A stretch of DNA of 20,579 nt from Halobacteriota archaeon (GCA_051747545.1 JBNJGG010000034.1:1-20579); one strand, 5' to 3'. Positions 8,537-15,739 are shown, numbered from the stretch's first letter. Translations and numbers: made by a program. Notes: generated by a model from the letters alone, not told the origin.

Positions 8537-10291
8537 ATGAGAAAGGCGAAAATCGTCTGCACGCTCGGCCCGGCGTCGGACGACCGAGCGACGATTCGGG
8601 CGCTCGCCGAGGCTGGGATGAGCGTCGCTCGACTCAACGCCAGCCACGGAACGGTCGCGGAACGCGCCGCCACCATCGACCGGATTCGCGCCGTCGACGA
8701 CGTCGTCGAGACGCCGCTGGCGGCGATGGTGGACCTGCAGGGCCCCGAGGTCAGAACCGCAACCCTCGACGAGCCGATTCACCTCGAAACCGGGTCGACC
8801 GTTCGGTTCGTCGTCGGTGACACCGCCACCCCGGAGGAGGTGGGCCTGTCGGTCGCAATCGACGCGGCCGCTCCCGGCGACAGAATCCTGCTGGACGATG
8901 GCCACATCGAAGCCACGGTCGAGGCCATCGAGGGCGAGACCGTCCTCGCTCGCGTCGACTCCGGCGGCGAACTCGGCGGGCGCAAGGGCGTCCACGTCCC
9001 TGGTGTCGACCTCGACGTCGACCGCATCACCGACACCGACTACCGTGACCTCGAAGTCGCGGTCGAGCGGGATGCGGACTTCGTCGCCGCGAGTTTCGTC
9101 CGCGACGCGAGCGACGTGTACGCCGTCAGCGACGCACTCGGCGCGCTCGGCGGCGACATTCCGGTCGTCGCCAAGATAGAGCGGGCCAGCGCCGTCGCCA
9201 CTCTCGACGCAATCGTCGGGGCGGCCGACGGCGTCATGGTCGCCCGCGGTGACCTCGGCGTCGAGTGCCCGCTCGAGGAGGTGCCGATGATTCAAAAGCG
9301 CATCATTCGGCGGTGTCAGGCCGCCGGCGTCCCAGTCATCACGGCGACCGAGATGCTCGACTCGATGGTCCACGCCCGTCGCCCGACGCGCGCGGAAGCC
9401 TCCGACGTTGCGAACGCGGTTCTCGACGGGACCGACGCGGTGATGCTGTCCGGTGAGACGGCCGTCGGTGACCACCCCGTCCGAGTCGTCGAGACGATGG
9501 ACCGAATCGTCGACGAGGTCGAAGCCAGCGAGGAGTACGCCGAGAGCCAGGCCCAGCACGTTCCCATCCCGGCGGCCGACTCGCGCACGGAAGCACTGGC
9601 TCGGTCGGCCCGATCGCTGGCCCGAGACATCGGAGCCGCGGCCATCGTCACCGCCAGCGAGTCCGGGTACACCGCCCGCAAGACGGCGATGTTCCGTCCG
9701 ACGGTCCCCATCGTGACCACGACGCCCAGCGACGCGGTTCGTCGCCAACTCGCGCTGACGTGGGGCGTTCGCGCCCAGTACGCCCCGTACGCCGAGGGGA
9801 TCGACGCCGTCGTCGAGAGCGCGGTCACGGCGGCCCTTGACGCTGGCGTCGCCGAGAGCGGCGACACGGTCGTCGTCCTCTCGGGGATGATGACCGAACT
9901 CGAAGGGACGAACACGACGAACATGCTCAAAGTCCACGTGGCCGCCGAGACGGTTGCAGTCGGTCGAAAAATCGTCGGCGGGCGCGCGGTTGGTCCGCTC
10001 GCCCGCGCTCCCGACGGTGACCTGACGACGCTTCCAGACGGGGCGATACTCGCCGTCGACACCGACTTCGACGGGGAGTTCACTGGCGACGTGAGCACAC
10101 TCGGTGGTATCGTCGACGCCCATTCGGGGCTGACCGGCTACCCGGCACTCTTCGCACGGGAACTCGACGTACCGATGATAAGCGACGCGCCGATTCCCGA
10201 CGCTCTCGCCGACGGGACGACGCTCACGCTCTACGCCGAGCGCGGCGTCGTCTACGAGGGTGACGTCCTCAAACACGAGCGACCCGCGTGA
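8537..10291 (+). CDS. pyk: Pyruvate kinase, long form with C-terminal PEP-utiliser mobile-domain extension
   Basis: 584 aa. The N-terminus is MRKAKIVCTLGPAS (the PK signature), followed by the PK barrel and C-domain. An extra ~100-aa C-terminal domain (GGIVDAHSGLTGYPALFARELDVPMISDA) resembles the His mobile domain of PpsA/PPDK. Confidence 0.9.
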   Translation: MRKAKIVCTLGPASDDRATIRALAEAGMSVARLNASHGTVAERAATIDRIRAVDDVVETPLAAMVDLQGPEVRTATLDEPIHLETGSTVRFVVGDTATPEEVGLSVAIDAAAPGDRILLDDGHIEATVEAIEGETVLARVDSGGELGGRKGVHVPGVDLDVDRITDTDYRDLEVAVERDADFVAASFVRDASDVYAVSDALGALGGDIPVVAKIERASAVATLDAIVGAADGVMVARGDLGVECPLEEVPMIQKRIIRRCQAAGVPVITATEMLDSMVHARRPTRAEASDVANAVLDGTDAVMLSGETAVGDHPVRVVETMDRIVDEVEASEEYAESQAQHVPIPAADSRTEALARSARSLARDIGAAAIVTASESGYTARKTAMFRPTVPIVTTTPSDAVRRQLALTWGVRAQYAPYAEGIDAVVESAVTAALDAGVAESGDTVVVLSGMMTELEGTNTTNMLKVHVAAETVAVGRKIVGGRAVGPLARAPDGDLTTLPDGAILAVDTDFDGEFTGDVSTLGGIVDAHSGLTGYPALFARELDVPMISDAPIPDALADGTTLTLYAERGVVYEGDVLKHERPA

Positions 10292-10328: not shown

Positions 10329-10344
10329 TTATCTCAGCTGATAA
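10329..10344. promoter_or_regulatory. Near-palindrome TTATCTCAGCTGATAA (TTATC...GATAA arms around CAGCTG) upstream of the TATA box; candidate operator
   Basis: Read directly from the sequence. It would be a perfect palindrome but for one inserted T. Confidence 0.35.
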
Positions 10345-10356
10345 TTGGGTGTGTAA

Positions 10357-10365
10357 TTTTTTATA
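10357..10365 (+). promoter_or_regulatory. Strong archaeal TATA box (TTTTTTATA) for the surface-protein operon
   Basis: The most AT-rich 9-mer in the window. It lies about 65 nt upstream of the ATG at 10430. Confidence 0.5.
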
Positions 10366-10368
10366 CCG

Positions 10369-10411
10369 GTGTCGGGAACAATCGGCAACCACCGGGCAGG
10401 TGTCCCGACAC
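10369..10411 (+). promoter_or_regulatory. Inverted repeat GTGTCGGGA...(25 nt)...TCCCGACAC spanning the predicted TSS/5'UTR
   Basis: A 9-bp perfect stem read from the sequence. It could be a 5'UTR hairpin or a DNA operator overlapping the TSS. Confidence 0.4.
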
Positions 10412-10429
10412 ACCGTGCCGCGCTCCCTC

Positions 10430-12178
10430 ATGAGACGGTCGCTTCACCTCGCGCTGACGTTCTCCGTGGTGGTGACGCTCGTCGCTGCCACGCCGACGGC
10501 CGTCGTCGCGGCTGGCGTCTCGGAGCCGACGCACGCGGCACTCGAAACTGCTCCCGCTGCCGACCAGAGCGGGTCGCCCTCGTTCGTCAACAACACGGTC
10601 ACGGTGACTCGCGGCGACGTCGCCGAAATCACCGTGTCGCACTCGAAGGCTGCCCGGGTCCACGTCGGCGGTCCGGGCTTCGGCTACCACCTCGAAATCG
10701 TCCTCAATGGGTCGGGAACGGACACGATTACGCTCGACACGTACAACTCCACGGGCCCGGCAGAGAGTCACGTCACCGGCGGTAACGCCACGCTTCACAC
10801 GCGCTCTCTCGACAGGCCGCTCGTCCCGTCCCGGTACCTGATGAACGTGACCGTCGACGGGGTCGAACAGGATCTGGGTACGCTCGAAATCGAGGAGCGT
10901 TCGACGGTCACGACCGCGGTATCGGTCGCTCCCGGGACGTCCGACCTGGACGAACTCGACGCCGACGAGTTGGCGGCGCTTCTCACCCACCGCGAACACG
11001 TCGCCCGAGGCGACCTGGCTGTCGTTCGACTCGACGGGAGCGGGTTGGAATCGGCGTTCGACGCCGAGGACCTCTCTGGAGGGCCGAACGCAGAGGGGAT
11101 TCGCGTGCGCTTTCGAGACACCACTCACCGCCAGAACAGAGCGCCCCGGTCGTTCGTCGCCACCGAGGAGACGAACGTGACGGTCCTCACCGAGTTCGAG
11201 GACGACGCCGTGCTCCTCGTGTGGGACACGAGCGACGTCTCGCTGTCCCGCGGCAACGTCACGTACGAAGTCGTCGCCGAGTTGGTGGCCGACCACAACG
11301 ACCTGGTCGTAGAGGACGAACTCCTCGCCCGCACGAACGTGACCGTGGTCCCCCCCTCGGTAACGCTGGAGGCAACGCCCGGGTTCGCGCTGTATCCGTG
11401 GCGCGGATCGAACCTCTCGGTCACCGGGCAGACGAACATCGCACCTGAGACGCCCCTCGACCTCCGCGCGCGCTCGACGGGACCGGACCCGTTCCTGCAG
11501 CGCGAACTCGTGACCGTCGACGGAAGCGGAAGCTTCCGGGCGCGGTTCGACTTCGGAACCGTCGAGCGCGGGACTTCCTTCCCGCTCTGGGTGCTGAACT
11601 ATCGGGACGAGTCGGTCACCACCGTCTCGCTCCCGTCGCAGGCGGCGAACCTGACGTTCCGCGACCAGCGTCTCGACGACGATGCGGTGACGCTCCGTTC
11701 GGTCAGCCTCCCGATGGACGGGTTCGTCCGAATCGAGCGTGAAGACGGCTCGACCATCGGCCAGACCGACCATCTCGTCGCTGGCGACCACGACAACGTG
11801 ACGGTGTCGCTCGACACCGCTTTGCTCTCGAACCAGACGCTCGCTGCCGTCGCCCACGTCGACCGTAATCTCGACGGCTCGTTCGACCCACGTCGCGACC
11901 CCGCGTTCGCGCCATCGGGCGTGCGCGTCGACTCGGAGGCCTTCGTCACGGTCTCCGAGTCGCCCCGACCCGCGCCATCGACGACCCCGTCGTCGTCGTC
12001 GACGGCAACGCCCACGCCGACTGCGACGCTCGAACCAACCTCCGCCCGGGCGACTGCGTACCCGGTCGTGTCTCGAACGCCGCTGGCTCCACGGACGCAG
12101 ACGCGTATGGACTTCTCTGTGCTCCTGACGATTCTGTCCCTGTTCGCGACCGGCCTGCTGCTCGCGAGGCGGCGATGA
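10430..12178 (+). CDS. Secreted, heavily N-glycosylation-sequon-rich cell-surface protein with Tat-like signal and PGF-CTERM-like C-terminal anchor
   Basis: The track ORF 10349..12178 has an implausible N-terminus. The ATG at 10430 gives MRRSLHLALTFSVVVTLVAATPTAVVAAG, a twin-arginine-type signal. There are 12 N-x-S/T sequons, a beta-rich body, a Thr/Ser/Pro linker SPRPAPSTTPSSSSTATPTPTATLEPTS, and the tail MDFSVLLTILSLFATGLLLARRR-stop. Confidence 0.7.
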   Translation: MRRSLHLALTFSVVVTLVAATPTAVVAAGVSEPTHAALETAPAADQSGSPSFVNNTVTVTRGDVAEITVSHSKAARVHVGGPGFGYHLEIVLNGSGTDTITLDTYNSTGPAESHVTGGNATLHTRSLDRPLVPSRYLMNVTVDGVEQDLGTLEIEERSTVTTAVSVAPGTSDLDELDADELAALLTHREHVARGDLAVVRLDGSGLESAFDAEDLSGGPNAEGIRVRFRDTTHRQNRAPRSFVATEETNVTVLTEFEDDAVLLVWDTSDVSLSRGNVTYEVVAELVADHNDLVVEDELLARTNVTVVPPSVTLEATPGFALYPWRGSNLSVTGQTNIAPETPLDLRARSTGPDPFLQRELVTVDGSGSFRARFDFGTVERGTSFPLWVLNYRDESVTTVSLPSQAANLTFRDQRLDDDAVTLRSVSLPMDGFVRIEREDGSTIGQTDHLVAGDHDNVTVSLDTALLSNQTLAAVAHVDRNLDGSFDPRRDPAFAPSGVRVDSEAFVTVSESPRPAPSTTPSSSSTATPTPTATLEPTSARATAYPVVSRTPLAPRTQTRMDFSVLLTILSLFATGLLLARRR

Positions 12179-13224
12179 TCTCCGAGATGAACCCGTCGGC
12201 GTTCGTGAACTTTCTCGCGGACATCTGGACGATCAACGGGTGGCGGACGACGGTCCACGAACGCGAGCAGGATGGGTGGCTCATAGCCGGTGAGCGACGT
12301 GGAAGGCGCGGCTTACTGCTCGCACTTCCGAACGCCGACCAGCGGGTGACCGGCCAGCACCTCCAGCGGTTCGTCTCGACCTGCGCAGAGCGGAACGTGA
12401 ACCACCCCGTCGTCGCGACTCGGGGGACCTTCAGCGACGATGCCGAGCGAATCGCCGCCGCAAACGGGGTCCACGTCATCACCTCGGAGGACGTCTCTAA
12501 CACGGTGAAGGTGGGCGGGTTCGAGGAGATTCTGGAACAGCACTCCGACCAGAAGAGTTCTGCCGAAGGGATTGCGTCGGTAGTTGCGTCGCTCCGTCGC
12601 GTCCTGCCGAACGTCGCCGACGCGAGTGCTGTCCTCCGGCGGGTCGGGACCGCACGCTCTCCGGGCGGCCTCGACCGCTCGAAGCTCACGCGGGTGGCGG
12701 CACTCGTCTTCGTCGTCGTCCTCGGGGTCGGCGGCACCGTCGCCCCCGGTCTGGCCATCCCCAGCGTGAGCGTCCCCGGTTCGTCGTCTGACGACATCGC
12801 CGTGTCGGCCGTTTCGGCGACCGGCGTCGCTGACGCCTCGCTGGAGGTGGCGTGGCGTGCACGCACCGGCGCGACGGTCACCACCGGAAACGACACGACG
12901 TACGCCGCCCCGACCGGCGAACAGTTCGTCGTCCTCCACCTCGACGTCACGAACACCGGGTCGACGCCGACGACGCTCGATGCCGATCAGGTGCTCGTCG
13001 AATCCGAGGGTCAGCGATACGCACACCAACCCCTCCAGGGCGTCTCCGGGTTCGAAGTGGGAATCCTCGACCCGAACGAGTCGACGTCGGCGTGGCTCGC
13101 GTTCTCTGTCCCGAGAGCGTCGACCAGCGCGACGGTCCTCGTCCATCCAACGGACTCCTCTTCGCGACCCAGCGTCAGGTTCGTCCACGACCACTCGGTC
13201 TCGGCGAGCGTCTCGACACGCTGA
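12175..13224 (+). CDS. Membrane protein with three parts: N-terminal cytoplasmic Mrr-type restriction-endonuclease-fold domain, single TM helix, extracellular DUF4352-like beta-sandwich domain
   Basis: The start overlaps the upstream stop (ATGA at 12175-12178). Residues ~10-110 (FVNFLADIWTINGWRTTVHEREQDGWLIAGE...VVATRGTFSDDAERIAAANGVHVITSEDV) follow the Mrr_cat topology. The TM helix is LTRVAALVFVVVLGVGGTVAPGLAI, preceded by the basic RSKLTR. The C-terminal ~110 aa (QFVVLHLDVTNTGSTPTTLDADQVLVESEGQRYAHQ...SAWLAFSVP) looks like DUF4352. Confidence 0.6.
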   Translation: MISEMNPSAFVNFLADIWTINGWRTTVHEREQDGWLIAGERRGRRGLLLALPNADQRVTGQHLQRFVSTCAERNVNHPVVATRGTFSDDAERIAAANGVHVITSEDVSNTVKVGGFEEILEQHSDQKSSAEGIASVVASLRRVLPNVADASAVLRRVGTARSPGGLDRSKLTRVAALVFVVVLGVGGTVAPGLAIPSVSVPGSSSDDIAVSAVSATGVADASLEVAWRARTGATVTTGNDTTYAAPTGEQFVVLHLDVTNTGSTPTTLDADQVLVESEGQRYAHQPLQGVSGFEVGILDPNESTSAWLAFSVPRASTSATVLVHPTDSSSRPSVRFVHDHSVSASVSTR

Positions 13225-13478: not shown

Positions 13479-13718
13479 ATGGCCGACACAGATAGACGGA
13501 TGACCGACACAGACGACACAGATAGACGGATGACCGACACAGACGACACAGATAGACGGATGGCGGACACAGACGACACAGGTGGAGAGGCGACGGACGA
13601 GGACGCGTGGATACTCGAGGAGCCACCAATCGAACCTGGCTCGCCATCCGCCGAAAATACGCTCTTCGTCCTTCTCGGGGCCGTCATGACGTTGGTCCTC
13701 CTGTTCGGGTCCCTGTAA
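13479..13718 (+). CDS. Small (79 aa) C-terminally membrane-anchored protein built from acidic tandem repeats (MTDTDDTDRR)x3
   Basis: The track ORF 13278..13718 has an Arg-rich, unhalophilic N-terminus. The in-frame ATG at 13479 gives MADTDRRMTDTDDTDRRMTDTDDTDRRMADTDDTGGEATDEDAWILEEPPIEPGSPSAENTLFVLLGAVMTLVLLFGSL. A TAATTT element sits ~22-27 nt upstream. The gene ends 38 bp before nfeD. Confidence 0.45.
   Translation: MADTDRRMTDTDDTDRRMTDTDDTDRRMADTDDTGGEATDEDAWILEEPPIEPGSPSAENTLFVLLGAVMTLVLLFGSL
13481..13582 (+). repeat. 30-bp tandem repeat, ~3.5 copies (tgaccgacacagacgacacagatagacgga), in frame within the small CDS
   Basis: Read directly from the sequence: 13501-13530 and 13531-13560 are identical, with partial copies on both flanks. 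Confidence 0.85.
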
Positions 13719-13756: not shown

Positions 13757-14341
13757 ATGGCAGGGTGGCTCCTGGCGGTGGCGCTCCAGCTGGACCTCGT
13801 CGGCCCGGAGATGCTTCCTCTGTTGCTCATCGTCGCCGGTCTCGGGTTGTCGTTAGCCGAGGCCCTCGCACCGGGAGCGCACTTCATCGTCCTGGGCGTC
13901 GCCCTCCTGGCCGCCGGACTGGTCGGGTTGCTGTTGGGTCCGTTGGCCGGTCCCATCGTCCTCGCGGTACTCGTCCTCGTGTTCGGTGCGGCCGCTCTGT
14001 ACGGGTACCGCGAACTCGACATCTACGGCGGGAAGGGGTCCGGACGGACGAGTGACTCCGATTCGCTCCGGGGAAAGACCGGTCGGGTGACCGAACGGGT
14101 GACGCCCACGACCGGTGAAATCAAACTCGACGAGGGTGGCTTCAATCCGTACTACGTCGCTCGCTCGGTCCACGGCGAGATTCCCGTAGATGCCGAGGTC
14201 ATCGTGACCGATCCCGGTGGCGGAAACGTCGTCACCGTCGAGTCGCTCGACGCTATCGACGACGAAATCGACCGCGAACTCCGGCGGAGTCGCACGGCCG
14301 AACGAGAGCGGCAACCCGAGACCGAGTCGGGTCGGTCCTGA
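13757..14341 (+). CDS. NfeD-family (stomatin-operon partner, short form) membrane protein with C-terminal OB-fold
   Basis: 194 aa. The N-terminus has 2-3 hydrophobic helices. The C-terminal region is the NfeD beta-barrel (GKTGRVTERVTPTTGEIKLDEGGFNPYYVARSVHGEIPVDAEVIVTD). It lies immediately upstream of the SPFH gene. Confidence 0.8.
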   Translation: MAGWLLAVALQLDLVGPEMLPLLLIVAGLGLSLAEALAPGAHFIVLGVALLAAGLVGLLLGPLAGPIVLAVLVLVFGAAALYGYRELDIYGGKGSGRTSDSDSLRGKTGRVTERVTPTTGEIKLDEGGFNPYYVARSVHGEIPVDAEVIVTDPGGGNVVTVESLDAIDDEIDRELRRSRTAERERQPETESGRS

Positions 14342-14488
14342 CGTCGCTGGGTCTCGCTCGCTGTCCGTCCCGTTCTCCGCATTTGGTGGGAATTTCGGAA
14401 ATACTGTCGTTTCAGAGGCTCTCTCGCCAGCTGAAGACACACTCTCTCGGGGCGAAGCCTTATCAGAGTGACAACCTAACTGCCGCGT

Positions 14489-15739
14489 ATGGACCCCGTA
14501 CTGTTGCAGGCAGGACTCGGCATCAGCGCGTTCGCCGTGGGGTTGTTAGTCCTGTTGCTGGCTGTCGTCACCGTCTACCAGATGGTCGAAATCGTCGACG
14601 CCTACGAGAAGAAGGCGCTCACGGTGTTCGGTGAGTACCGGAAACTGTTAGAGCCGGGTATCAACTTCATCCCACCCTTCGTCTCTCGGACGTACGCCTT
14701 CGACATGCGGACGCAGACGCTCGACGTTCCCCAGCAGGAGGCCATCACGCGCGATAACTCCCCCGTGACGGCCGATGCCGTCGTCTACATCAAAGTGATG
14801 GACGCCAAGAAGGCGTTTCTCGAGGTCGACGACTACAAACGGGCCGTCTCCAATCTAGCGCAGACGACCCTCCGGGCCGTGCTGGGCGACATGGAACTCG
14901 ACGAGACGCTCAACAAGCGGCAGGAGATAAACGCTCGCATCCGCAAGGAACTCGACGAACCCACCGACGAGTGGGGCGTCCGCGTCGAATCAGTCGAGGT
15001 CCGCGAGGTGAACCCGAGCGCCGACGTTCAGCAGGCGATGGAGCAGCAAACCTCTGCGGAACGCCGTCGCCGAGCCATGATTCTCGAAGCGCAGGGTGAA
15101 CGCCGCAGTGCCGTCGAGAAGGCGGAGGGTGAAAAGCAGTCGAACATCATCCGCGCACAGGGTGAAAAGCAGTCGCAGATTCTCGAAGCGCAGGGTGACG
15201 CCATCTCGACGGTGCTTCGCGCGAAGTCTTCGGAGTCGATGGGCGAGCGAGCTATCATCGAGAAGGGCATGGAGACGCTCGAATCTATCGGGCAGGGCGA
15301 GTCGACGACGTTCGTCCTGCCGCAGGAACTGTCCTCTCTGCTCGGTCGGTACGGCAAGCAACTCACCGGGAGCGACGTACAGGAGATGGCTGGACTGGAG
15401 AGTCGGCAGTTCGACGAGGAGACTCGCGCGCTGCTCGGCCTCGACGACATCGACGAAATCCTCGGCCAGATAGACGAGGCCGCCGAGATGGACGTCGAGG
15501 AACTGGAGAAGGCGGCCCAGGCGATAAAGTCGGGCGAGAGCGTCGACATCAAGAGTTCTACGGAGGTCATCCGAGAAGCGGAGGCGGCCGACGACGAGGC
15601 TGCGGAAGCCGAGGCGTCCGTCGAGGGCGACGCGCCGCTCGAAGAAGACCGAACGGCCGCGGGGCCGTCCTCGGCCTCGCCGGGTGAAGAGTCCTCCTCG
15701 GGTGACGGCGAGATGCAGTTCGACAAGGAAGTCGAGTAA
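14489..15739 (+). CDS. SPFH/band-7 (stomatin-like) protein with long coiled-coil and acidic C-terminal tail
   Basis: 416 aa. It has an N-terminal TM helix and an SPFH core (LTVFGEYRKLLEPGINFIPPFVSRTYAFDMRTQTLDVPQQEAITRDNSPVTADAVVYIKV). After the core come the repeats EAQGERRSAVEKAEGEKQSNIIRAQGEKQSQILEAQGD. Confidence 0.88.
   Translation: MDPVLLQAGLGISAFAVGLLVLLLAVVTVYQMVEIVDAYEKKALTVFGEYRKLLEPGINFIPPFVSRTYAFDMRTQTLDVPQQEAITRDNSPVTADAVVYIKVMDAKKAFLEVDDYKRAVSNLAQTTLRAVLGDMELDETLNKRQEINARIRKELDEPTDEWGVRVESVEVREVNPSADVQQAMEQQTSAERRRRAMILEAQGERRSAVEKAEGEKQSNIIRAQGEKQSQILEAQGDAISTVLRAKSSESMGERAIIEKGMETLESIGQGESTTFVLPQELSSLLGRYGKQLTGSDVQEMAGLESRQFDEETRALLGLDDIDEILGQIDEAAEMDVEELEKAAQAIKSGESVDIKSSTEVIREAEAADDEAAEAEASVEGDAPLEEDRTAAGPSSASPGEESSSGDGEMQFDKEVE

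Follow-up and report, generated by a model that had tools for sequence, protein, structure and literature searches.

Two adjacent genes between positions 10,329 and 13,224 of a 20,579-nucleotide stretch of DNA from a Halobacteriota archaeon (GCA_051747545.1 JBNJGG010000034.1:1–20579; hereafter the window), a piece of haloarchaeal chromosome with a GC content of ∼65%, raise the question of what a nuclease fold is doing in a membrane protein encoded next to a surface glycoprotein. Gene A encodes the glycoprotein, while gene B encodes a single-pass membrane protein that joins an Mrr-like domain to a DUF4352 domain. A first-pass annotation made from the sequence alone had noted this pair and had interpreted it as a trans-envelope sensing or defence module containing a nuclease-fold domain and marking the start of an accessory segment. 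The observation is confirmed by the present analysis and the interpretation is partly supported, but it was wrong in invoking a nuclease effector, a part in defence and an accessory segment. The coordinates of the features discussed are given in Table 1.

The domain calls originally made for B hold. Scans with profile hidden Markov models match its product to Pfam Mrr_cat (PF04471; E = 9.8e-8, 32.6 bits over residues 3–107, cut-off 21) and to DUF4352 (PF11611; E = 3.2e-10, 40.8 bits over residues 236–327, cut-off 25.9), and among full-length family members the two models match 22/23 and 20/23 proteins, respectively. Modelling with AlphaFold from the alignment of the family gave a mean predicted local distance difference test (pLDDT) score of 82, with both globular domains above 90 and with a poorly defined linker and membrane segment. 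A Foldseek search of the PDB matches the N-terminal domain to the Mrr-like nuclease folds of AF1548 (PDB entry 1y88), MspJI, EndoMS/NucS and Cdn1, and the C-terminal domain to the DUF4352-type beta-sandwiches of YxkC (9a4z, a YxkC–DacA model), CD630_09570 (5bxg), YcdA (4r4g), YjhA (3cfu) and MPT63. A search of the PDB by sequence with B gave only chance matches, to ribosomal protein S16. An exhaustive profile search with B collected 116 representative proteins, ∼23 of which have the full B architecture; a word-indexed homologue search found only two proteins.

The topology of B could be assigned from the family as a whole. Each of the 23 members contains exactly one hydrophobic segment, and the 15-residue flanks of this transmembrane (TM) helix hold, in the family total, 47 lysine and arginine residues on the N-terminal side and a single one on the C-terminal side. 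Under the positive-inside rule this distribution places the Mrr-like domain in the cytoplasm and DUF4352 outside the cell, in agreement with the orientation first described. An NxS/T sequon in the ectodomain, at the position of Asn239 in the window protein, is common to several members and fits the same orientation. The length of the cytoplasmic linker ranges from ∼25 to more than 100 residues across the family.

The claim that B supplies a nuclease did not survive comparison with its closest relatives. In an alignment of 62 N-terminal domains, 22 members of the B family were compared with 25 catalytically intact sister sequences from haloarchaeal membrane proteins. The helix glutamate, the D-x-G-x-D motif and the I-Q-x-K-R-Y motif are each 100% conserved in the sisters, whereas the columns of the catalytic E, D, D, Q and K show 0% conservation in the B family. 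The glutamate is replaced by Val, Ala, Pro or Gly, the catalytic aspartate by Val, Ile or Ala and the glutamine by Leu, Tyr, Trp or Met; the B family has a deletion at the lysine column and a conserved proline where the sisters have the tyrosine. No conserved acidic or lysine column is present in the core of the B-family domain in this alignment, and the residues that are conserved there (Trp18, Gly22, Trp23, Thr25, Thr82, Gly84 and Ala94) form a structural core. The Mrr_cat scores are 93–104 bits for the sisters and 33 bits for B. Since all of the catalytic residues have been lost, the Mrr fold of B appears to be a pseudo-nuclease that is most likely catalytically dead, and the label 'restriction endonuclease' carried by B orthologues is, judging from these substitutions, almost certainly functionally wrong. 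The same Mrr–TM–DUF4352 architecture exists in both intact and degenerate versions, the window carrying the degenerate one.

A degenerate Mrr-like N-terminal domain is also found in the proteins P0075 and P0096, where a very long Gly/Pro-rich linker and a TM segment connect it to an archaeal-flagellin/pilin-like domain. The recurrence of the degenerate domain with different ectodomains suggests that it is a general-purpose cytoplasmic module.

Gene A encodes a surface glycoprotein, as had been proposed. Upstream of the ATG adopted as its start, alternative in-frame GTG codons are present at 10349 and 10400. In the protein a signal peptide is followed by four to five immunoglobulin (Ig)-like beta-sandwich domains, which a Ser/Thr/Pro stalk connects to a TM anchor at the C-terminus; 12 NxS/T N-glycosylation sequons are present. 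Pfam identifies DUF7282 (PF23951) with an E-value of 3.7e-21 and DUF7827 weakly, and the BGTF domain is present in 8/8 of the A orthologues scanned. In the AlphaFold model (mean pLDDT 81.5) the signal region is disordered and residues 48–512 are all beta with pLDDT above 90; the structural neighbours returned by Foldseek are generic multi-Ig proteins. The model NF041335 for the S-layer glycoprotein gives a partial match of 85.5 bits over its positions 403–764 of 862 and fails the equivalog cut-off of 1100 bits. On the basis of these matches, A is classed as a paralogue that corresponds to the C-terminal half of the S-layer glycoprotein, the half closer to the membrane, and not as the S-layer protein itself. 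Features common to A and the ArtA-dependent S-layer glycoprotein (NCBIfam NF041335; the H. volcanii HVO_2072 family) are the BGTF domain, a heavy potential for N-glycosylation, a stalk rich in Thr and Ser and a hydrophobic anchor at the C-terminus; A differs in lacking the N-terminal half, in having an additional DUF7282 domain and, in the window copy, in the absence of the PGF motif. An A orthologue is also present in Halobacterium zhouii (P0137).

Two strands of A carry an Arg-Gly-Asp sequence, TRGD at residues 59–63 and ARGD at residues 191–195 (numbered from the ATG; approximately 10604–10618 and 11000–11014 in the window). Arg61, Gly62, Ala192, Gly194 and Asp195 are invariant or nearly so among 27 homologues. 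These motifs are probably structural turns of DUF7827-type domains, yet they are notable in a surface protein.

The membrane anchor and export route of A differ in part from what was first supposed. The window copy has the layout of an ArtA substrate, with a Ser/Thr-rich linker, a C-terminal hydrophobic helix and a basic tail ending in RRR, and in this it resembles a PGF-CTERM protein; however, the PGF motif is replaced by MDF and the protein gives no match to the PGF-CTERM model TIGR04126 at E ≤ 1. The A orthologues fall into two subtypes. The short subtype (420–480 residues) has a canonical PGF-CTERM and is without DUF7282, which is missing from the short A proteins of loci L005, L006, L011 and L012; those of L011 and L012 pass TIGR04126 with 35.7 and 31.3 bits, respectively, against a cut-off of 24.5. 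The long subtype (560–620 residues), to which the window copy belongs, has DUF7282 and retains only a degenerate V/L-P-F/L remnant of the motif. The earlier proposal of export by the twin-arginine translocation (Tat) pathway was consistent with the N-terminus of the window copy, MRRSLHL, but the signal peptides of 0/11 orthologues contain a twin arginine. Export of A by Sec therefore appears likelier than export by Tat.

Mapping of the neighbourhoods of B in other Halobacteria shows that its pairing with A is real. In 12 of the 14 loci with readable upstream DNA, the gene immediately upstream of B, in the same orientation, is a homologue of A: the window, L001, L002 (Halobellus rufus), L004, L005, L006, L007/L008, L010 (Halanaeroarchaeum), L011 and L012 (both Halomicrococcus), L013 (Haloferax sp. 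DFSO60) and L014 (GCA_046097085.1). The paired loci come from Haloferax, Halobellus, Halanaeroarchaeum and Halomicrococcus and from several metagenomic lineages. Both of the searches begun from A (2/2) recovered B downstream of it, and a search with an alignment of five sequences gave four loci. The adjacency is maintained in at least four different genomic contexts. In loci of the Haloferax/Halobellus type the pair lies between pyruvate kinase and the NfeD–SPFH genes, while elsewhere it is found between the genes for Rio2 kinase and a Cys/Met-metabolism enzyme and that for ribosomal protein L15e, between TrmB and the L15e and ETF genes, between a group comprising rhodopsin, ZIP, aldo-keto reductase and DnaJ and an EF-Tu-like GTPase, or near DNA ligase. 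In addition, the subtypes of the two proteins correspond: the short PGF-CTERM form of A is paired with a B subclade characterized by 'VAxQR...GLIWA' and the long DUF7282 form with a subclade characterized by 'F.VxGD...GLxLVxP'. The supposed linkage of the two genes is to this extent upheld, although it is not obligate, as discussed below. No paper describing the pair was found in a literature search, in keeping with the original impression that it had not been reported.

Translational coupling, in contrast, is not a general feature of the pair. The four-nucleotide overlap (ATGA) of the end of A with the beginning of B is present in the window sequence as first read, and recurs in Halobellus (L002) and in L007/L008, making three lineages with the window; the remaining A–B loci have gaps of 31–112 nucleotides. 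The promoter assigned to the pair fared better than the operator. When seven loci from several lineages are aligned, all have TGAT 17–18 nucleotides upstream of the TATA box, and TTT(A) is likewise invariant, whereas the left arm of the near-palindrome recurs only in the Halobellus locus L002, so that the full palindrome is found there and in the window.

Two groups of neighbouring genes were considered as additional components and rejected. DUF7312 is adjacent to the pair only in loci of the Haloferax/Halobellus type. The NfeD–SPFH genes are likewise adjacent only in the Haloferax/Halobellus lineage, L15e or an EF-Tu-like GTPase following B elsewhere.

The genomic setting does not support the placement of the pair at the start of an accessory segment or in a defence island. 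The gene order from PEP (phosphoenolpyruvate) synthase to the GT2/LPG-synthase gene is the same as on Haloferax and Halobellus chromosomes, and the neighbourhood of the window is common to Halobellus rufus, two Haloferax species and GCA_046097085.1. All of the genes downstream of B and most of the upstream genes have a syntenic counterpart in Haloferax or Halobellus, the downstream part being as syntenic as the upstream part. The GC content at third codon positions (GC3) of A and B is 0.84, compared with 0.76–0.85 for the neighbouring genes other than the short repeat-rich DUF7312 gene (0.69), and the composition profile of the window shows no break. Housekeeping genes flank the pair in every locus, and none of the loci examined has an integrase, transposase or toxin gene, or a gene known to act in defence, beside it. 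A scan of the proteins against PADLOC-DB v2 gave as its sole match a marginal, domain-level similarity (E = 9e-4) to the Mrr-like domain of ZorD, and a scan against PHROGs matched the DUF4352 domain of B to the phage protein family phrog_806 (E = 3.7e-6), again at the level of the domain. No homologue was detected by tblastn in 50,697 phage genomes, and a tblastn search of plasmids gave marginal matches, to DUF4352 only, on two Halocatena records only. Horizontal transfer and an accessory island were rejected on the basis of the synteny and GC3. Given this synteny, the native GC3 and the absence of mobile or defence neighbours, the A–B loci belong to the core genome, are consistent with vertical inheritance and do not constitute a defence island.

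Haloferax volcanii has an orthologue of B (ADE04334.1) in the same neighbourhood, with the order pyruvate kinase, DUF7312, ∼420 nucleotides of non-coding DNA, B, NfeD-like and SPFH. No trace of A was found by tblastn in this locus. In the available part of a published table of transcription start sites, the order and sizes of the genes are HVO_0806 (585 residues), HVO_0805 (82 residues), HVO_0803 and HVO_0802 (200 residues), and the sequence at an internal start site translates to the linker of the B family. From the gene order, the sizes and the linker translation, the H. volcanii orthologue of B was deduced to be HVO_0803; the locus tag HVO_0804 does not occur in the portion of the table examined. 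In the same portion the interval from the HVO_0803 antisense site to the start of HVO_0805 contains no listed start site, and under standard conditions transcription of HVO_0803 may therefore depend on read-through from HVO_0805. B occurs across the whole genus Haloferax under the annotation 'restriction endonuclease' or 'homolog to restriction system mrr'. A glycoproteomics supplement contains no entry for HVO_0803.

The GC-rich non-coding segment of ∼420 nucleotides occupies the place where other loci carry A (L015, 6578–7000, between HVO_0805 and HVO_0803). It opens with the conserved promoter element TGATAAT...TTTATGT, so that the TGAT/TTTA arrangement is kept just after HVO_0805.

Comparison of the pair with characterized and uncharacterized systems helps to define what B is. 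With the type IV restriction endonuclease Mrr it shares the fold, the Mrr_cat similarity reported above and the core motifs W..GW.T and T.G.F...A; its catalytic E, D, D, Q/E and K are replaced or deleted, it lacks the Mrr_N DNA-recognition domain and, unlike Mrr, it has a membrane anchor and a domain outside the cell. The same Pfam architecture is found in the same phylum in uncharacterized haloarchaeal proteins with an intact Mrr_cat domain (P0080, P0113 and P0062). In sequence, their N-terminal domains are closer to the B family than any others outside it, but unlike B these proteins retain the signature D.GID...IQxKRY; their DUF4352 domains are too distant from that of B to be detected by phmmer. 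P0080 adjoins an integrase and has no A-like gene nearby. These proteins, and not B, would be candidates for a membrane-bound nuclease that acts on incoming DNA. In the P0080 locus (L016) the gene occupies 509–1633, is preceded by a 59-residue open reading frame (ORF) and lies next to a phage-type integrase gene at 2254–2850.

The closest published analogue of B in terms of architecture is Mpr, the multicopy phage resistance protein of Mycobacterium smegmatis, a small membrane protein in which a single TM helix separates an N-terminal region in the cytoplasm from DUF4352 at the C-terminus. In Mpr the N-terminal region has been reported to be an exonuclease, its DUF4352 domain has been reported to drive oligomerization and the protein protects against phage D29 (PMC12596739). 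The Mpr N-terminal region is, however, short, reportedly active and without an Mrr fold, whereas that of B is a dead Mrr fold; Mpr has a phage-resistance phenotype and no partner glycoprotein, while B is part of the core genome. Since the Mpr comparison requires an active nuclease and the active site of B is missing from its sequence, the comparison appears to fail at this point. The Bacillus lipoproteins YxkC, YcdA and YjhA have the same DUF4352 beta-sandwich on the outer face of the membrane, but they are bacterial, lipid-anchored and without a cytoplasmic domain, and their identity to B is only 10–15%. YxkC, the best structural match, has been modelled in contact with the penicillin-binding protein DacA (PDB entry 9a4z). 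The topology of B also resembles that of ToxR and CadC regulators, although B matches no helix-turn-helix (HTH) or winged helix-turn-helix (wHTH) model.

These comparisons suggest, as a possibility that falls somewhat short of probable, that A and B form a membrane-anchored complex and constitute a chromosomal, vertically inherited envelope module of haloarchaea. A would be exported, N-glycosylated and held at the membrane by its C-terminal anchor; in short A proteins this anchor is a genuine PGF-CTERM, in long ones simply a TM helix. The ectodomain of B would bind the membrane-proximal domains of A, the YxkC–DacA model offering a precedent for DUF4352 as an envelope contact module; where A is missing, as in H. 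volcanii, B may instead bind the S-layer glycoprotein or another protein with a BGTF domain. The dead nuclease domain could serve as a cytoplasmic docking, oligomerization or possibly nucleic-acid-binding module. Co-transcription from the single conserved promoter, together with translational coupling in this genome, would keep A and B in proportion. B may descend from membrane-bound Mrr–DUF4352 proteins with intact active sites of the kind that still exist in Halobacteria, one of them adjoining an integrase.

Several observations weigh against a complex of this kind. B is found without an adjacent A in H. volcanii and in the metagenome-assembled genome (MAG) locus L009, where a divergent TrkA-like gene precedes it, which implies that B has a function that does not need A or at least does not need an adjacent copy. 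The B family is sparse, with ∼25 clusters at 50% identity, and the role of B is, given this sparseness, probably dispensable or niche. Depending on the family member, the N-terminal domain has a net charge between −22 and +6, which neither favours nor excludes nucleic-acid binding. A literature search that included HVO_0801–0805 and ADE04334 yielded no experimental data for HVO_0803. The occurrence of B alone can also be accommodated by a rather unlikely alternative in which A and B are envelope proteins under a shared promoter that make no contact, their adjacency reflecting co-regulation or common descent; B would then serve a purpose of its own, as it must in H. volcanii, and A would simply add to the number of S-layer-like glycoproteins. 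The limited conservation of the overlap, most loci having gaps instead, is in line with this alternative, as is the fact that haloarchaea encode many BGTF/DUF7282 surface proteins beyond those linked to B. It is less easily reconciled with an adjacency that is kept in at least four unrelated neighbourhoods and in several haloarchaeal genera, with the covariation of the A and B subtypes and with the recovery of B by both searches that started from A.

Two other explanations were weighed. Nuclease folds that lose catalysis can keep DNA binding, and Pfam includes a family of inactive restriction-endonuclease domains, NA-iREase1. B could accordingly be conceived of as a membrane-tethered one-component sensor of the ToxR type, in which DUF4352 senses the envelope or A and the dead Mrr fold acts as a non-cleaving DNA-binding domain at the TGATAA element upstream of A. 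The topology, in which a single TM helix links the N-terminal domain in the cytoplasm to a domain outside the cell, the long flexible linker between the Mrr-like domain and the membrane and the TGAT(AA) sequence conserved upstream of the TATA box in seven loci are compatible with such a sensor, but Pfam recognizes no HTH or wHTH domain in B, the Mrr-like domain has no conserved basic residues and in many members it is strongly acidic (net charge −12 to −22), unlike the HTH protein encoded in the window, so that the proposal appears improbable. Least probable of all is the original interpretation of the pair as a trans-envelope defence module, developed here into an Mpr-like antiviral system in which B would be a membrane nuclease that destroys viral DNA on entry and A a surface sensor or a mask for the receptor. 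The protection against phage D29 afforded by a protein of Mpr architecture (PMC12596739), the existence of sisters with an intact Mrr site, a TM helix and DUF4352, one of which lies beside a phage-type integrase, and the matches of B to phrog_806 and, weakly, to the Mrr-like domain of ZorD could be cited in its favour. The catalytic residues are, however, missing from every B member compared, the loci are core-genome loci with housekeeping flanks and without defence or mobile genes, the composition is native and the position is conserved across the genus, consistent with vertical inheritance, and homologues are absent from the phage genomes searched, plasmids offering only the marginal DUF4352 matches. 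On present evidence the pair is not a new defence system; most likely it belongs to the equipment of the cell envelope.

A further reading, of low probability, takes B to be a pseudo-nuclease that has been domesticated, possibly from a mobile Mrr–DUF4352 nuclease bound to the membrane, and that now links the glycoprotein layer to the cytoplasm. It might do so as a tether to DNA or the nucleoid, as a ToxR-like regulator acting at TGATAA or as a docking site that organizes or reports envelope assembly. If correct, this unlikely proposal would describe a new kind of archaeal trans-envelope coupling device that could be tested through HVO_0803. The system is tractable in H. volcanii, which has B alone, and in Haloferax sp. 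DFSO60 and Halobellus rufus, which have both genes. The membrane proteins in contact with the S-layer and its paralogues are little known, and the pair represents a conserved and unstudied envelope combination of an S-layer-glycoprotein paralogue with a dedicated single-pass membrane partner. B may also illustrate how a nuclease fold has become a non-catalytic cytoplasmic module while intact relatives of the same architecture persist. A practical consequence concerns annotation: the 'restriction endonuclease' label on the B proteins of Haloferax and other haloarchaeal genomes, HVO_0803 included, misleads surveys of restriction-modification and defence.

Table 1. Positions of the A–B genes, their domains and their promoter elements in the window.
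Feature	Position	Strand	Basis or remark
Near-palindrome TTATCTCAGCTGATAA	10329..10344	+	Sequence
Upstream element TGATAAT, right half of the near-palindrome	10339..10345	+	Only part conserved across genera
TATA-box-like TTTTTTATA, putative A–B promoter	10357..10365	+	Sequence; function inferred
Gene A, 582-residue surface glycoprotein	10430..12178	+	Start taken as ATG 10430
BGTF/halo_surf_dom domain of A	11417..11602	+	NCBIfam NF045517, E 1.5e-12, 47.5 bits, cut-off 40
DUF7282 domain of A, closest to the membrane	11645..11935	+	Pfam PF23951; long A subtype only
Disordered Ser/Thr/Pro-rich stalk of A	11966..12115	+	pLDDT <50, residues 513–562
C-terminal hydrophobic anchor and basic tail of A, MDFSVLLTILSLFATGLLLARRR	12116..12175	+	Hydropathy; predicted helix 563–581
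ATGA overlap, stop of A/start of B	12175..12178	+	...CGG CGA TGA / ATG ATC TCC
Gene B, 349-residue single-pass membrane protein, N-terminus inside	12175..13224	+	ORF
Cytoplasmic Mrr-like (PD-(D/E)XK fold) domain of B, degenerate	12175..12549	+	Pfam Mrr_cat; pLDDT >90
Variable low-confidence cytoplasmic linker of B	12550..12687	+	pLDDT 45–72
Single TM helix of B, approximately residues 172–198	12688..12768	+	Hydropathy
DUF4352 beta-sandwich of B, extracellular, with a short Gly/Ser stalk	12787..13221	+	Pfam; pLDDT ∼90

The remaining genes of the window surround the pair in the following order. Upstream on the plus strand are those for a PhzF-like protein, PEP synthase, a decarboxylase dependent on pyridoxal phosphate (PLP), a VTT-domain protein, methionyl-tRNA synthetase and pyruvate kinase, after which gene A begins. 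Gene B is followed on the same strand by a small DUF7312 protein, an NfeD-like protein, an SPFH/stomatin protein, an HTH protein of the HVO_0163 type and a GT2/LPG-synthase fusion, and a gene for a periplasmic binding protein, on the minus strand, comes last. Scans of the window for tRNA genes and Rfam families gave no match. The pyruvate kinase (8537–10291) has a C-terminal PEP-utilizers mobile domain (residues 500–570), which is also present in its Haloferax and Halobellus orthologues.

The DUF7312 gene probably starts at ATG 13479, with its stop at 13718, and encodes a small protein with a C-terminal membrane anchor; it lies downstream of the A–B pair in the window but upstream of A/B in Haloferax and Halobellus. 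A 30-bp tandem repeat (13484–13581, 3.3 copies, 97% identity) inside the gene encodes TDTDDTDRRM peptide repeats within the acidic N-terminal part of the protein. The NfeD-like membrane protein and the SPFH/stomatin protein that follow (13757–15739) are a classic pair. The 194-residue NfeD-like protein has no match in Pfam, a faint NfeD match being found only for its orthologue in L014. Histidine-kinase genes are inserted at different sites in related loci, after B in Halobellus (L002, 9273–11039) and before pyruvate kinase in GCA_046097085.1 (L014, 3600–4700), indicating that the region tolerates inserts despite its conserved backbone.

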